NCBI GenBank assembly: GCA_023133415.1
Contig: JAGLWM010000004.1
Coordinates: 3,574 to 67,573, forward strand
Source: Candidatus Pacearchaeota archaeon
GTDB taxonomy: Archaea; Nanobdellota; Nanobdellia; Pacearchaeales; GW2011-AR1
Direction: 5' to 3'
Length of the DNA stretch: 64,000 nt
Shown in pieces: positions 1 to 52,487 of this stretch. Below the pieces are notes generated by a model. It did not search any database. It worked only from the letters and a program-made list of their open reading frames with translations, and was not told where the DNA came from. A program made the translations under genes and the position numbers. Numbering within the stretch: the stretch's first letter is position 1; every line of letters starts with the position of its first letter.

Positions 1-704
1 TCGTAATTACATGAGCCATCTCCGAAACATTTTGATTTTATTTCTAACTCTATTGAGCCGAATGCTGGTGAGGATTCGGTTCCCTCTAGGACGTAGATTA
101 TTGGTGAATTTTTATTTCTGTAGATTAAATTTGCCATAAAGTCTTTGTTACATTCTATTATGAATTTTTTGTCATAACAGTTTTCGTTTACTTGTAGCCA
201 GAAGTTTGACTGGGCTCGAGTTAGGCAGGAGCCGGCGTCTTCATCAATTTTTTTGTCTGTGCCTATATTTATTGTGAAGTCTTTGCCGTCGTATCCGATG
301 TGGCATTCCGTTTCCTCATTGGAGTCTTGCTGAAGATACCATGTTAAATCTGTTGGTGTTTGGTTCTGTTTGATTAGCCATTCTTCTGCTCCCTCGGTAT
401 TTTTGCCCGCGTGTTTTAGTGCTAAGATTGCTAGTGCAGTATCACGAACGTTTCCCCAGTTATCTGAAGATTCTCTGTTTTGTAATTCGTCTACGCAGTC
501 GTCGAAAATGTTGTCTGGAGTTGCTAGGATTGTTAGGGCGACTTCTTGTGTTGTTAATCCAGAGCAGTCTTTGGCTTTTTCTTCTAGGCAATCGAATGCT
601 TGTTCAATTTTGGCTTGGTCTGTTGTTTCGTTGTCGGTAGCTAGAACTAGTGTTGATGCGAATAGTAGAAAGAATAATATTATTATTGTATACCTCTTTT
701 TCAT
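1..704 (-). CDS. secreted protein, partial (3' end beyond window), with prenyltransferase/terpene-cyclase-like alpha/alpha repeat motif
   Basis: Not in the ORF track because it runs off the edge. Reverse translation from ATG (rc of cat at 702-704) gives MKKRYTIIILFFLLFASTLVLATDNETT (signal peptide), then NWGNVRDTALAILALKHAG. The plus-strand ORFs 370..714 and 419..640 are shadows. Confidence 0.55.
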   Translation of the reverse strand, partial: MKKRYTIIILFFLLFASTLVLATDNETTDQAKIEQAFDCLEEKAKDCSGLTTQEVALTILATPDNIFDDCVDELQNRESSDNWGNVRDTALAILALKHAGKNTEGAEEWLIKQNQTPTDLTWYLQQDSNEETECHIGYDGKDFTINIGTDKKIDEDAGSCLTRAQSNFWLQVNENCYDKKFIIECNKDFMANLIYRNKNSPIIYVLEGTESSPAFGSIELEIKSKCFGDGSCNY

Positions 705-4395: not shown

Positions 4396-7300
4396 TGAGA
4401 GAAAAAATAGTTGCGAGTTTTGAATTGATTTTGATGGTTATGTCATTGTTTGCGTTTGCACATGGGGTTTATTTGAGTGATGAGGTATTTGAAAAACTTG
4501 ATGAAAAATATAAGGAAGCAAGGGATTCCAGACTTACTGAGATTGTTGAACTGAGTGAAAGAATTCAGCCTGAAAAATCGAAAATTGGACTCATTGGTGC
4601 TATTTTTAGGAGGTTGAGGGAGCCAATGATTCAGGTTGTTTCAGCGGCGGAAACTTCGTCTGGTATTGATGAACTGGGATGTTGTTTCATGGCTAAAGAT
4701 GGGTCGAAGTGTGGAACTTCGGAGCCTGGAAATTGTGTTGCGGATTCGCCTTTTGCTGAAGGAGTTTTGTGCGCTTATGCCTCATTTTGCCAAAAGGGTT
4801 GCTGTTTTGATGAGAAGTTGGGGATTTATGATAAAAATGTTTTGGAGGCGGATTGTTCGGCGAGTTGGGTGGGGGATCCTAATTGCAATATGCCCGAGGC
4901 GAAGCTTGGATGTTGTATTTTGGGAACAAGTTCGATTTTTGAGACATTGGGGCAATGTGAGATTGATACTTTAGCGAGGGCAATGGGAGATAGTCCAATT
5001 GTTGATTGGAGGAGTGATTTGGATGAAGGACAGTGTTTTTTAATGTCGGCGACACAGGATGAAGGGGCTTGCATTCTCGATGGAGGAGTTTGCACGTTTG
5101 GGAGTGGGGTTGATTGTTATGATTATGGGGGACAGTTTAGCGAAGGTTTTCTTTGCACTTCTTCTTTGTTGAATAGTAATTGTGAGATGACTGAACAAAC
5201 AACCTGTGTTGATGGTAAGGATGGTGTTTATTTTGTGGATTCTTGTGGGAATTATGCGAATATTTATGATTCGGCGAGGGTGAATGACCAGAGTTATTGG
5301 GAGAGAGTTATCGATCCGGAAAATGCCTGCGGAAATGACGATATTGAGGGAAATGCAGATTCTAAAGATTGTGGGAATTGTAATAGATTTTTTGGTGGAA
5401 TTTGTGGTTCGGCAACGGAGGATAATTTTGATGTTGATATTGGGAGTTTCTATTGTAAAGGGACGTCGTGCATGTTTGATGGAGTGAGTTATAAAAATGG
5501 AGAATCGTGGTGTGTTTATGATGGGGCGATTGGCAATGGGGATGATGTTGTAGGATCGAGGCATTGGAAATATGTGTGTTCACAAGGAGTGGTGCAAATA
5601 GAGCCTTGCGCGGATTATCGTAATCAGATTTGCATTCAGACGAATACTTTTGATGTTGAAGGGGAAGAGGTTGAGTTTCGAAATGCTGCTTGTATTGCTA
5701 ATAATTGGAGGGAGTGTATTGATTTGAATGGTGAGGAAGATGGGATAGACCAGTGTGTTGATGCTTTGAATTGTCGAGTTGAAAATGTTGATATTGCGGA
5801 CAAATTTAAGTTTGATGTGTGTCTTCCAAGGTATCCGGGGGGATTTAGTTTAATAGATGAGAGATATATGGTGACGGCGGAGAGCATTTGTGGGATGGCT
5901 GACCAGATATGTACGGTTGTGCGAGAACCGAAGACATGGGGAGGGTGTAAATATGTTGCGAATAAGGCGTGTCTGAGCGAGGGTTTTGCGCAAGAGATGA
6001 ATGATTTTTGCAGGGGACTTGGAGATTGTGGGGGGTCGGTTAATATTTTGGGGGAGTATTCTGAAAATTATAAAGTTACAAAATCTCCCATGTTGAGTCA
6101 GAGTTGGATTAATAAACTGAAAGCATTGGCTGAACCTGTGCCAGGGCAGTTTGCAGAGGTTGAGGATTATTCGGAGTATTTGGAAGCAGCTGGAGTCTGG
6201 GCGAATCCAGAAGAGGCGGCTGAGAGTGGGGATGCTAGGGGAATGGCTGACTTTCAGAATATAGGAATGGGACTTGCGGGAATTGGATATACCGCTGGGC
6301 TTTGGGCTACTGGTGGAAAACTTGCTCTTACTGGACTTATGGAAATAGCGGGGGGATCGTGGTCGGCGACTGTAGCAAGTTTCGCAGGTGTTGCGATTGG
6401 TGCGGGAATTGGTATGATTGCTGGAGCATATCTTGCTGAATATCTTGAATTGAGTCCGGGCGGAAGTATGTTGATGGCGGTAGGTGGGGCGATGGTCGGC
6501 GGGGCTGTTGTATATTTTAGTTTAACTCCAGCACTTTTAGCAAGTCCTTTCTTTTGGGTTGGTATTGCTCTTATTGTTGTATCTCTTTTTTTTGGTGGCG
6601 ATGATTGTCCTCCGATAGAAGTTATTTTTGAGTGTAAACCGTGGAAAGCTCCTTTGGGTGGGAGTGATTGTGAAAAGTGTAATGAAGATTTGTTGAAACC
6701 GTGCTCGGAGTATCGTTGCAATAGTTTGGGATCGGCATGCGAGTTGGTGAATAAGGGAACTGTCCAAGAGATGTGCGCGTCCTCAAGTGATGATGGAATT
6801 CCTCCTGTTTTAAGTCCGCAGTTTGGGACTATTTCCGCGGATGAAATTTATGGTGACATTAGTGATAGTAGATTTAGTTTGACATCCATAGATGGGGGAT
6901 GCATTGATGCTTATACCCCTTTAATGTTTGGCATTGTTACAAACGAGTTGGCATATTGTAGATTTGATATGGAGACAAAAGAGTTTGAGGAGATGGATTT
7001 CGATTTTGGGGGGAATTCTTATTTATATAATCATACGACTGTATTTAGTCTGCCAGACCCGAGTCATGGGCAGAGTCAAGGAGCGGATTGGAATGGAGAC
7101 TTGACTTTGTATATTAAGTGTGTTGATGTTCACGGGCATGAAAGTCCAGGTTTTTACACGATTGATATGTGTGTGAATCAGGGACCAGATAAAACAGCTC
7201 CGCGGATTGTTGCGACTGATCCTGTGAATAATGCGATTGTTGGATTTGATGTTTCGGAGAAGAGTGTTAGTATTTTCACGAATGAGCTTTCGACTTGTAG

Positions 7301-33892: not shown

Positions 33893-34014
33893 TTTGAATG
33901 GGGCTTATCTCATAATTTGCATCTCGAAACGGTATTTAACCTTTTGTGTTTCTCGAAGCGAATTACTCGCCACAGACTTGAACTCCGTTCAAATCTCCGT
34001 GTCCTTTTGAATTT
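33893..34014 (-). repeat. 110-bp element downstream of tRNA-Pro, bounded by a 12-bp direct repeat of the tRNA 3' end
   Basis: tttgaatggggc at 33893-33904 and 34003-34014. The interior has a tRNA 3'-half-like segment (ACGGAGTTCAAGTCTGTGGCGAGTA) and aattcgcttcgag..gcaaatt motifs shared with the tRNA-Ser elements. Confidence 0.6.
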
Positions 34015-34081
34015 GAATGGGGCCACGCAGATTTGAACTGCGGTCGCGAAGTCCCAAACCTCGAATCATACCAGGCTAGAC
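34009..34081 (-). tRNA. tRNA-Pro (anticodon UGG)
   Basis: GGGGCCA/TGGCCCC acceptor stem, CGAGG-TTTGGGA-CTTCG anticodon arm, CGCAG-TTCAAAT-CTGCG T arm. 73 nt, no encoded CCA. Confidence 0.85.
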
Positions 34082-34122
34082 CATGGCCCCATGAGTTTGA
34101 GGTGATTTGTTGATTAATAAAG

Positions 34123-50795: not shown

Positions 50796-51299
50796 ATGAA
50801 AGGAAAAATTATTTTAGTTATTTCCATTATTGTCTTGGCAGTTTTGGCTACATTTGTTGTTTTGTATAAAGACACATTGGAAGAAACCCGTAGTGAAGAG
50901 TATTACAACACCCTTTCAGAAATTCAAAAAGGTAATAATTATATTTTAGAAAAGGGACTTTCTGATAATTGTTTTCCTTATCGCTACTTTCATAGGGGAT
51001 GTTATTATGGGGGAAAAGTACATTATGAGGGACTGGTAATTAGTCATCTTTTAGATAGAAACCTTACTCATGAGGAAAGAATTAATCTGTGTTATGAGTT
51101 TGCTTTTAATGGCTCTGTTGCTTATTGTTTGCAACAGAATAAGGAGATTGGGAAGTGTAATGAGTTTGCAAAAGATGATGAATATCTTGAAAGAATTTGC
51201 GGACTAAAAGAAAATGAAACAATTCCTACTGAAGGATTCTATAGTTCGGAATATAAAGACAATCCCATTCCTATAAAGACGGTTGCACCTCAACTTTAA
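50796..51299 (+). CDS. membrane-anchored Cys-containing hypothetical protein
   Basis: TATA ttttataaaa at 50765-50774 lies 26 nt upstream of ATG 50796. MKGKIILVISIIVLAVLATFVVLY. Confidence 0.55.
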   Translation: MKGKIILVISIIVLAVLATFVVLYKDTLEETRSEEYYNTLSEIQKGNNYILEKGLSDNCFPYRYFHRGCYYGGKVHYEGLVISHLLDRNLTHEERINLCYEFAFNGSVAYCLQQNKEIGKCNEFAKDDEYLERICGLKENETIPTEGFYSSEYKDNPIPIKTVAPQL

Positions 51300-51304
51300 T
51301 ATTA

Positions 51305-51581
51305 CGCTCACACCCTATTCGCACTTTGCATTTCGCAAAAATATTTATCTGAATTTTTATTTTTATTTTACTCAAAGCGAAGATCCTCAGAATCGAATTT
51401 CTGTCCCATTATTGATGAAAAATAAATGGTGTCTATGACACCATGAACGTTCACACCTTGCTCACACTTCACTCTAAAATTTTGTCAATTTTATTTTTTC
51501 TTTAGGCAAAATTCGAGCAAAGATGTTCGGAATCGAATTTCGGTTCTAATAAGAATTTATGGGATTTATAATCCCATTAAA
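51305..51581 (-). repeat. two tandem 134-143 bp elements downstream of tRNA-Ser(UGA), each ending in a copy of the tRNA 3' end
   Basis: cgctcacacc at 51582, cgttcacacc at 51448 and cgctcacacc at 51305. Internal ggaatcgaatttc(g/t)g and ttgcatttcgcaaa motifs. Confidence 0.6.
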
Positions 51582-51662
51582 CGCTCACACCAGGAATCGA
51601 ACCTGGAAGCCCCGAAGGGCCTGGTTTTCAAGACCAGTGCACTACCATTATGCGATGTGAGC
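51582..51662 (-). tRNA. tRNA-Ser (anticodon UGA)
   Basis: GCTCACA/TGTGAGC acceptor, CTGGT-CTTGAAA-ACCAG anticodon arm, long variable arm GCCCTTCGGGGCTT, CCAGG-TTCGATT-CCTGG T arm. Confidence 0.9.
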
Positions 51663-51784
51663 ATATCCTAATAATAGGACGCCCATACCCTAGCTCGCAA
51701 TTTGCATTTCGCAAACTATTTTTAATTTTCGTTTGCTCGAAGCGAATTGTTCGGAATCGAAACTTCGATTAGTGGTCTAGGCTA
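51663..51784 (-). repeat. 105-bp element downstream of tRNA-Ser(CGA), ending in an 11-bp copy of that tRNA's 3' end
   Basis: cgcccataccc at 51785-51795 and 51680-51690. The interior aligns with the tRNA-Pro element (aattcgcttcgag..aaa..gtttgcgaaatgcaaattgcgag). Confidence 0.6.
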
Positions 51785-51865
51785 CGCCCATACCCCGAAT
51801 CGAACGGGGATGCCCCGGGGGGCCGCGGGTTCGAGCCGCGTGCAATACCATTATGCGATATGGGC
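51785..51865 (-). tRNA. tRNA-Ser (anticodon CGA)
   Basis: GCCCATA/TATGGGC acceptor, CGCGG-CTCGAAC-CCGCG anticodon arm, variable arm GCCCCCCGGGGCAT, CCCCG-TTCGATT-CGGGG T arm. Confidence 0.9.
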
Positions 51866-51888
51866 TTGGTATTTTTGAGCAGGGAAGG

Positions 51889-51898
51889 TTTTTAAATT
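51889..51898. promoter_or_regulatory. shared A/T box about 25 nt from both the tRNA-Ser(CGA) 5' end and ATG 51918
   Basis: gtttttaaat. Confidence 0.35.
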
Positions 51899-51917
51899 TT
51901 GACAGTGTTGTGTTTTG

Positions 51918-52487
51918 ATGAATAAAGAGTTGATTCCTTCGGTGATTGTTGGTCTTGTGTCTTTAATGTCTTTGATTCGTTTCGCTTTAACAAAAAATTG
52001 GGAATTTATTTTTTATGTCCTTGCTGTTATGATTTTCTTTTATTCAGTAATTCGTAGCGATAAAATCTTTAATTATCCTAGAATTGCAATTTGGGGATTG
52101 GCTGCTTGGGTTGTTATGCATATGGCTGGTGGAGTTGTTTATATCAAGGGAATAAGGCTTTATGATTTTATACTAATTTCGTTAGTTGGAGAGCCTTATA
52201 ATATTTTGAAATATGATCAACTTGTTCACTTCTTTTGTTATATTGTGATTGGGTTGTTGGTTTGTTCGATAACTAAAAAATATTTTGGGAAAATGGATGG
52301 GGTGAAAATAATTATATTAATATTGATAGTTTTGGGAACTGGTACTTTTTACGAATTGCTTGAATTTGGTACGGTTGTGATGCTCGCGTCGACTGGCGTT
52401 GGCGGATATTATAATCTGATTTTGGATCTCTTTTTTGATTTAATAGGTGCAACTATTGGGGTGTTGATTGGGAAGAGGATTTCTTAG
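51918..52487 (+). CDS. integral membrane protein (5-6 TM)
   Basis: Hydrophobic 189-aa ORF. Confidence 0.6.
   Translation: MNKELIPSVIVGLVSLMSLIRFALTKNWEFIFYVLAVMIFFYSVIRSDKIFNYPRIAIWGLAAWVVMHMAGGVVYIKGIRLYDFILISLVGEPYNILKYDQLVHFFCYIVIGLLVCSITKKYFGKMDGVKIIILILIVLGTGTFYELLEFGTVVMLASTGVGGYYNLILDLFFDLIGATIGVLIGKRIS

Follow-up and report, generated by a model that had tools for sequence, protein, structure and literature searches.

Short non-coding units stand behind the 3' ends of tRNA genes in a Candidatus Pacearchaeota archaeon, and in these units a hairpin core of 55-75 nt splits a partial copy of the tail of the local tRNA gene. The units are fairly probably insertions of clade-specific, non-autonomous mobile hairpin elements, the target being duplicated on insertion and the gene rebuilt. 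The element itself would be the core, with interchangeable type-1 or type-2 interiors between shared ends. It would recognise T-arm-like DNA carrying a G|TTC|R motif, and it is found only within a partial duplicate of the gene that it would have struck. With the local gene as the source of all target-derived parts, the tRNA would be rebuilt upstream of the element, which could thus settle in essential single-copy genes.

Two serine tRNA genes and the units behind them

The window is a stretch of 64,000 nucleotides from contig JAGLWM010000004.1 of assembly GCA_023133415.1. It carries two intact serine tRNA genes on the minus strand, both detected by ARAGORN: tRNA-Ser(CGA), without an encoded CCA (51785..51865; Rfam tRNA, 49.1 bits), and tRNA-Ser(UGA) (51582..51662; Rfam tRNA, 60.4 bits). 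The units described here lie on the same strand and are read in tRNA sense. Unit A (51679..51784), which has homologues at the same tRNA in the relatives L014, L016 and L019, follows tRNA-Ser(CGA) and consists of a linker, segment a, segment b, a type-2 core and segment d. Segment a (51764..51770), AATCGAA, is an inverted copy of the T-loop TTCGATT, and segment b (51754..51762), TTTCGATTC, is a direct copy of the T-loop together with C61. The type-2 hairpin core (51691..51753; nhmmer E = 1.5e-15) begins with CGAACA and ends with CGAGCTA. Segment d (51679..51690) is an exact copy of the 3' end of tRNA-Ser(CGA) plus 1 nt.

Behind tRNA-Ser(UGA), two units stand in a row. Unit B (51447..51581) is made of an ATGG..CCAT hairpin (51559-51577), a degenerate a, a segment b (51530-51537), a type-1 core (51458-51529; nhmmer E = 3e-14) and a segment d (51447-51457); its RNA fold has a z score of -3.67. 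Unit C (51304..51446; nhmmer E = 3.8e-12) has the same kind of hairpin (51426-51444), a segment b (51390-51397), a type-2 core (51315-51389) and a segment d (51304-51314). In the three units the core measures 63-75 nt and d corresponds to the last 11-12 nt of the tRNA. No integrase-type ORF is found inside units A-C (105-143 bp), and the matches of this genome to the integrase domain PF00589 are located elsewhere.

The first-pass annotation of this locus had reported that the 3' end of each serine tRNA recurs downstream, at spacings of 105 for the first gene and of 134 and then 143 for the second. These spacings, taken start-to-start, are recovered. The 12-nt copy GGGTATGGGCGT that closes unit A is exact, unit B ends in GGTGTGAaCGT with one mismatch, and the end of unit C, GGTGTGAGCGT, is again exact. 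The shared motifs ggaatcgaa(a/t)tt and ttgcatttcgcaaa are likewise present, as are the two short hairpins, at 51559-51577 and 51426-51444. What had been missed is that 'ggaatcgaa' is itself tRNA-derived, the T-loop being present in one inverted and one direct copy. The 'terminal duplicate' of that annotation is segment d, the displaced right half of the target.

The ATGG..CCAT hairpins of units B and C, each accompanied by a T-run, form a third small module, for which the preceding sequence is either a tRNA end or a tail copy, without anything in between. Modules of this type are also observed elsewhere in the genome, after tRNA-Leu (ATGGTTTCAAAGAAACCAT) and after tRNA-Lys(CUU) (ATGCCATCGAAGATGGCAT). 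It may be a terminator.

A sister unit (33893..34016, minus strand; nhmmer E = 3.4e-13) is found in the window after tRNA-Pro (34017-34091). It contains a T-arm palindrome, a type-2 core and the copy GCCCCATTCAAA. The archaeal ribosomal protein L37ae is encoded directly behind tRNA-Pro.

Terminal copies belong to the adjoining tRNA

The genome searched amounts to 836 kb (0.84 Mb) in 21 contigs and is 85.6% complete. An exact copy of the last 10 nt is found within 300 nt downstream of 11 of its 37 tRNAs. The same search gave 0 copies upstream, 0 in reverse complement and 0 with the reversed string, and the naive chance expectation is about 0.0003 per tRNA. With 11 of 37 tRNAs positive and none in any control, the terminal copies are real and far above chance. 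When one mismatch in 9 nt is allowed, about 16 of the 37 tRNAs have one or two units.

The copies had been proposed to be specific to the tRNA that they follow, rather than a generic motif. This is borne out by 73 type-1 cores from about 20 genomes: in 36 of them the right flank is an exact 8-22 nt copy of the tail of the co-oriented upstream tRNA, the others being mostly near-matches, contig ends or reversed copies. The view that the units are small elements attached to tRNA 3' ends is likewise supported.

Anatomy and break registers of the units

In tRNA sense, the order of the parts is a linker of 1-70 nt, a, b, the hairpin core of 55-75 nt, and d. Segment a is an inverted copy of part of the T-arm and b is a direct copy of that same part. 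Segment d is a direct copy running from the break point to 1-3 nt beyond the tRNA end; its length is 10-12, 17-19 or 22 nt, reaching about 28-30 nt where the target is a protein gene. In the tRNA, the sequences of b and d adjoin each other except for 2-4 lost bases. Therefore, b|core|d is a partial copy of the tRNA tail that is split by the core.

Two main break registers were distinguished, counted on the type-1 cores with an identified tRNA. The first class has a break at G53|R57 in the T-loop, with d beginning at position 57 (28 of 40 units), b running up to G53 (24 of 36) and T54-C56 lost. In the second class, b ends at 60-62 and d begins at 64-65 (8 of 40 units). This register, at the junction of T-stem and acceptor, comprises the Glu and Gln units and the Ser units of the window. 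The extent of d in the second class equals that of the 11-12 nt repeats that bound integrase islands at tRNA-Glu(UUC) and tRNA-Asp in this genome.

Uninterrupted copies of a tail are virtually absent, with 1 (27 nt) near 161 tRNAs in all the sequence examined. The tail copy and the core thus arise together, the core not being a later guest in pre-existing att scars. Within one and the same a/b|d frame, the core is found in either orientation. Reversed cores occur in the tRNA-Met units of this genome and of several relatives. They also interrupt pseudo-copies of tRNA-Phe and tRNA-Tyr, each with its own copy of the promoter and adjoining the intact gene. In these tandem arrangements of tRNA-Met, tRNA-Phe and tRNA-Tyr (C4:23209-23476 and C10:2560-2796 in this genome; L043:7100-7500 in a relative), an upstream pseudo-copy with a reversed core is followed by the intact gene. 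Mirror-image units carrying a copy of the tRNA 5' end are found upstream of tRNA-Leu(UAA).

The several tRNA-derived segments of the units (a, b and d), as well as whole-gene tandem copies with promoters at tRNA-Met and tRNA-Tyr, might suggest that tRNA genes were duplicated locally in tandem and then decayed, no mobile element taking part. The first-pass annotation had named such a history as one that would overturn its reading. The further tRNA-derived pieces do speak for a duplication; against it, the copy is always split by a dispersed hairpin. The copies also lack the 5' two-thirds of the tRNA, their break points are discrete, the part not derived from tRNA is one conserved hairpin at more than 15 tRNA species in more than 20 genomes, and the same element is present at the ends of protein genes. 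Duplication and decay without an element is extremely improbable and is already contradicted by the dispersed, conserved core.

Two other origins of the copies were considered and rejected. In a tRNA intron spliced at a BHB motif, joining b to d should restore the T-loop, and the joined product lacks T54-C56; the copy also lacks the 5' part of the tRNA. Derivation from mature tRNA, or from a tRF through cDNA, does not fit copies that have no CCA and run on into the genomic +1 T.

The hairpin core

Type-1 and type-2 cores have 10-12 outer nucleotides per side in common and differ in their interiors. The core ends are CGAACAATT on the left and AATTGTGAGTA on the right, the right-hand end motif being GTGAG. 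Between the ends CGAACAATT and AATTGTGAG, 7 of 9 positions are identical in inverted orientation.

Covariation was examined in 62 distinct aligned type-1 cores. As the search pattern prescribed the inner anchors of the type-1 core, evidence of covariation is taken from the free positions only. In the core helix, 92.4% of the cells are paired, versus 82.6% after shuffling and at most 56.5% with the partners slid. The covariation score is 0.238 versus 0.074 for shuffled alignments, and none of 500 shuffles reached it. Pair 13-79 is AU in 32 cores and CG in 27; pair 28-62 is UA in 36, GC in 13 and CG in 10. Pair 19-73, a free position, is UA in 49 and GU in 13, with no unpaired case. Three G·U pairs are invariant in the set, but they stand in columns fixed by the search pattern. 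Since G·U pairs are mismatches on the other strand, the folded form belongs to one particular strand, as RNA or as single-stranded DNA. The helix is closed by 5'-YGAR-3' opposite 5'-YGAR-3', which gives tandem G·A pairs. The pairs flanking them covary: the pair on one side is C-G in 54 cases and T-A in 19, and its counterpart across the motif is A-T in 49 and G-C in 17. A K-turn was rejected as a reading of the tandem G·A pairs, because the flanking positions covary as paired and a 3-nt bulge is missing.

A strand-specific hairpin may be read in favour of an RNA with a function for the host. A precedent would be the RtT repeats (Rfam RF00391), 178-bp units behind the E. coli tyrT and tyrV genes in which the 3' end of tRNA-Tyr is repeated at the close of every unit. 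Like the units described here, RtT repeats are tandem units right behind a tRNA, closed by a copy of its 3' end and probably co-transcribed with it. In contrast with the present units, which follow a third to half of the tRNA genes across the genus, RtT is a single enterobacterial locus, and it is not known to have a dispersed hairpin core, an inverted copy or protein-gene sites. By analogy, the units would be spacers or trailers transcribed together with the tRNA and cut out by RNase P and tRNase Z. They would act as a portable promoter or terminator, as a processing signal, or as a decoy for integrases that target tRNA tails, and the tail copy would be held identical to the tRNA through gene conversion or selection. 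The alternation of U-A and G·U in one pair, seen on the strand that in most units runs in the direction of the tRNA, agrees with this, as do the three invariant G·U pairs, with the reservation that their columns were fixed by the search pattern. On the other side, cores in reversed orientation would be mis-sense if read from the tRNA promoter, and pseudo-tRNA copies are disrupted by cores. Furthermore, no Rfam family, RtT included, was matched: in a cmscan of 51000-52100 (E <= 5), RF00391 was not found and the matches were the two tRNAs and chance matches. Overall, host-functional RNA modules appear a rather unlikely explanation, which the comparison between species and the promoter of tRNA-Ser(UGA) further qualify.

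Distribution in the genome, the genus and beyond

With nhmmer profiles, 31 cores were found in the 0.84 Mb genome, 18 of type 1 and 13 of type 2. All of them are in a tRNA-derived context except at two loci, located at the 3' ends of protein genes, and none is in plain intergenic DNA. The first of these loci is the 3' end of an AlaX-like gene (...AGVRRIKAILE*; contig C2, about 5200-5330), with the target GGAG|TTCGAAGG; at the second (contig C20, 41100-41320) the element is present twice at a gene end. At both, the last 28-30 nt or so of the gene, including the stop codon, are duplicated in the a/b|core|d layout. Because the same element with the same layout is found at protein-gene 3' ends, target recognition seems to occur at the level of DNA and to require a motif resembling the T-loop.

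There are other small core types as well, for example in units of 77-81 nt at tRNA-Ile(UAU) and tRNA-Cys. The type-1 core is present in 25 of 49 genomes of the genus, and its pattern is absent from the 16 genomes searched of other families in the order. In the GTDB species set, the type-1 pattern was found in 55 stretches, all from the same DPANN group. Genomes with the same repeat are exclusively MAGs labelled Woesearchaeota, Pacearchaeota or Nanoarchaeota, and the host studied here is a small DPANN archaeon. No match to the type-1 core was obtained in the viral contigs of IMG/VR.

Two type-1 cores stand head to tail at the start of contig C4 (C4:1-120), with no tRNA-derived sequence between them; at the junction, GTGAGCA|GAACATC, the right end of one core directly adjoins the left end of the other. 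Seven contigs (C3, C4, C5, C8, C11, C13 and C17) start or end within tRNA-linked units. The repeats thus break the assembly. No tRNA-Ala was found in this genome (85.6% complete), and assembly breaks at the units may hide tRNA genes.

Turnover between species

The first-pass annotation had proposed to look for variation in unit number between strains. Between species, 0-2 units are found at the same tRNA. Behind tRNA-Ser(CGA), there is no unit in L029, L032, L033, L034, L040 and L041, one unit in L014, L016, L019, L022, L023 and L026, and two in L024. At tRNA-Ser(UGA), most relatives have no unit. At the same tRNA in different species, the interior of the core differs, and in every case the terminal copy is identical to the tail of the tRNA at that locus. 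Relatives carrying the unit without the terminal duplicate were not encountered, homologous units always ending in the copy of their own tRNA. For instance, the terminal copy is GGGTACGAGCG in L014 and L016, where this genome has GGGTATGGGCG. Unit A is homologous in these three genomes and its d follows two substitutions in the acceptor stem.

Perfect blocks are found within arrays. At tRNA-Arg(UCG), a 44-nt repeat made of d, linker, a and b flanks the core, and triple units in L084 are further perfect tandem blocks. Decayed or truncated units also exist, for example in L015 and on contig C15. Cores are near-identical across species, versus about 43% identity for the one flanking protein that was compared. 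Such strong conservation of sequence across species could equally be a sign of host function. A metagenome scan for close relatives that would give a filled and empty pair of strains returned protein identities of at most 49%, and all site comparisons are species-level, between distant relatives.

These data bear in both directions on the RNA modules considered above. The way in which the d of unit A tracks the acceptor-stem substitutions is what maintenance by selection or gene conversion would produce. Against such modules, the presence and number of units differ among species at the same tRNA, and some units are decayed or truncated. Turnover of this kind speaks for insertion of a mobile hairpin element.

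The promoter of tRNA-Ser(UGA)

In this genome, TTTAAAA boxes are found about 30 nt upstream of tRNA genes. However, tRNA-Ser(UGA) lacks such a TATA box at -26 to -35, this position being taken by the copy of unit A and a 16-nt spacer, CCTATTATTAGGATAT (51663..51678, minus strand; compared with L018, L021 and L042). In these three relatives, which are without unit A, a TATA box, ACCACTAAT-TTTAAAAAC, is present between the two Ser genes; TTTTAAAAAC stands at the tRNA-Ser(UGA) promoter position in relatives without unit A. Unit A in this genome comes after ACCACTAATC. Its type-2 core contains a BRE/TATA-like sequence, ACGAAAATTAAAAATA (51718-51733). As tRNA-Ser(UGA) has no TATA box at the usual distance, its promoter sequences suggest that it is probably transcribed through unit A from tRNA-Ser(CGA), or else from the box in the type-2 core. 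Loss of its own TATA box, with transcription by one of these two routes, also counts in favour of the RNA modules considered above.

Integrase islands and tRNA genes

Duplication of att sites by islands that tyrosine integrases insert in tRNA genes is established (Reiter 1989; Williams 2002; both as cited in PMC9897764). The crossover subsites of tRNA-island integrases are the anticodon loop, the T-loop and the T/acceptor junction (PMC4383910). The two main break registers observed here coincide with two of these three, the T-loop and the T-stem/acceptor junction (PMC4383910). Other similarities are the intact regenerated tRNA with a displaced, directly oriented 3' fragment behind it, the stacking of units in tandem at one tRNA, and the presence of such integrases in the genome. 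In terms of the Islander criteria, a displaced 3' fragment of the same tRNA and a start at a crossover subsite are found, and an integrase in the interval is not. Unlike integrase islands, the units form 'islands' of 60-130 bp without any gene, a hairpin separates the displaced fragment from its left continuation b, and an additional inverted copy a is present. Moreover, one and the same core is found at more than 15 tRNA species, and the parts derived from the target match perfectly each time.

In spite of these differences, the units might be scars of kb-sized islands brought in by integrases, from which almost all DNA would have been lost, remnants of attL and attR being kept and the core with a and b representing old attP arms. 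The genome does contain integrases that target tRNA genes, as well as islands with 11-12 nt copies of tRNA tails at their borders. The d of the second register class is as long as those island repeats, and integration leaves a displaced 3' fragment as its standard footprint (PMC4383910; PMC9897764). However, at the ends of the large islands (tRNA-Glu, tRNA-Asp), neither the core nor the GTGAG motif stands beside the repeat, so that the units are not simply big islands that have shrunk. In addition, the dispersed cores, 55-75 nt long, form a uniform family in which compensatory changes are seen, unlike remnants of random deletion. They are found in both orientations, and intermediate sizes are seen at no locus. 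Finally, a canonical attR is an uninterrupted tail copy, the very arrangement that is virtually absent here. Decay of large islands is quite improbable.

Comparison with short mobile elements and casposons

Like MITEs, REP/BIME sequences and attC sites, the units are short and non-coding, occur in multiple copies and form imperfect palindromes in which the ends are conserved and the interior varies. They differ from all of these in that the target is the T-arm of tRNA, rebuilt with direct and inverted copies. As in MITEs, terminal inverted repeats and many dispersed copies (31 here) are observed; unlike in MITEs, a target-site duplication of fixed length is not.

The resemblance with the attC sites of integrons extends to a strand-specific fold with conserved mismatches, conserved ends and a variable terminal structure. 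Furthermore, three XerA-type proteins of this genome match the NCBIfam family 'tyrosine recombinase/integron integrase'. The core sites of attC, R'' and R', are RYYYAAC and GTTRRRY, with the crossover at G|TT. In contrast, the ends here are YGAAC on the left and YGAGYA on the right; the GTTRRRY and RYYYAAC core sites are absent, the left junction is G53|YGAAC and the right junction is without TTC.

Casposons, the transposons that use Cas1, insert at the 3' ends of tRNA genes or of the aEF-2 gene, the gene end being duplicated. Their length is about 8-20 kb; they encode Cas1 and PolB, are bounded by long terminal inverted repeats and produce a duplication of 14-15 bp. The insertion at tRNA tails and at the 3' ends of protein genes, the gene being kept intact through the duplication, is similar to what is described here, but the duplication lengths do not fit 14-15 bp.

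No published description of such elements was found in a full-text literature search. Similar elements in Geobacter were not confirmed by PMC2700814.

A possible route of insertion and candidate enzymes

The units show a dispersed hairpin that always stands within closely matching copies of its target, with discrete break positions, both orientations and turnover among species. The simplest account would be a non-autonomous mobile element that copies target DNA as it inserts and thereby rebuilds the gene. Read along the unit, the copies come as sense(1..73), linker, antisense(58..44), sense(44..53), core, sense(57..73). Such an outcome would be expected from two fold-back (snap-back) template switches, and it may be likened to the junctions of duplications with inverted triplications. 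The duplication would be made by the insertion itself, for instance if staggered breaks arose at subsites of the integrase type and were then processed by fill-in and fold-back synthesis. Alternatively, a folded single-stranded or circular intermediate could be integrated; excised as a circle, unit A would join d to its own linker (...GCGAGCTAGGGTATGGGCGT|AGCCTAGACCAC...). A tyrosine recombinase acting in trans may be imagined as the agent.

An attP carried by the element cannot account for the perfect matches, which extend to more than 15 tRNA species and to two protein genes. A more specific scheme may be put forward tentatively, and we hold it to be possible though doubtful. The hairpin, folded as single-stranded DNA and perhaps handled by recombinases of the XerA/integron type, would break the T-arm at G53|T54, and fold-back copying of the target, in direct and inverted form, would then rebuild any tRNA or any gene end that has a T-loop-like GTTCGAA. 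We know of no chemistry that gives an inverted copy a together with the loss of T54-C56. It also counts against insertion that the duplicated length is variable (10-22 nt, up to about 30), whereas it is fixed in ordinary target-site duplications.

Archaea usually have one XerA. Here, three XerA-type paralogues are encoded (C20:32908-33819, C21:39579-40415 and C21:27272-28144), scoring 240, 223 and 203 bits against NF040815, the 'tyrosine recombinase/integron integrase' family, whose cut-off is 220; no core adjoins any of the three genes. These recombinases and the two large tRNA integrases of the genome (396-430 aa) are candidate enzymes. In this genome (85.6% complete), the transposase searches, which covered IS110, TnpB and Y1, gave no match and no related transposase or RAYT, and an autonomous copy of the element was not found. 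An orphan left end at C5:22294 runs into an antisense gene, with no transposase, and a loose scan with the end motifs for autonomous copies was too noisy to be used.

Concluding remarks

The units fill much of the scarce non-coding DNA at the tRNA loci of tiny DPANN genomes. They break assemblies at tRNA genes, and the resulting tRNA fragments can mislead annotation. With one unit standing in place of the tRNA-Ser(UGA) promoter, the elements would also rewire tRNA expression.

Classic integrative elements at tRNA genes restore the gene through a tail copy that they carry themselves. In the units studied here, the same outcome would be reached by a different route, an element without target information standing at more than 15 tRNA species with perfectly rebuilt tails, which implies that target sequence is copied during insertion. 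If the scheme of breakage at the T-arm and fold-back copying were true, it would represent a new way for selfish DNA to inhabit essential genes, by means of an element that carries no information on its target.
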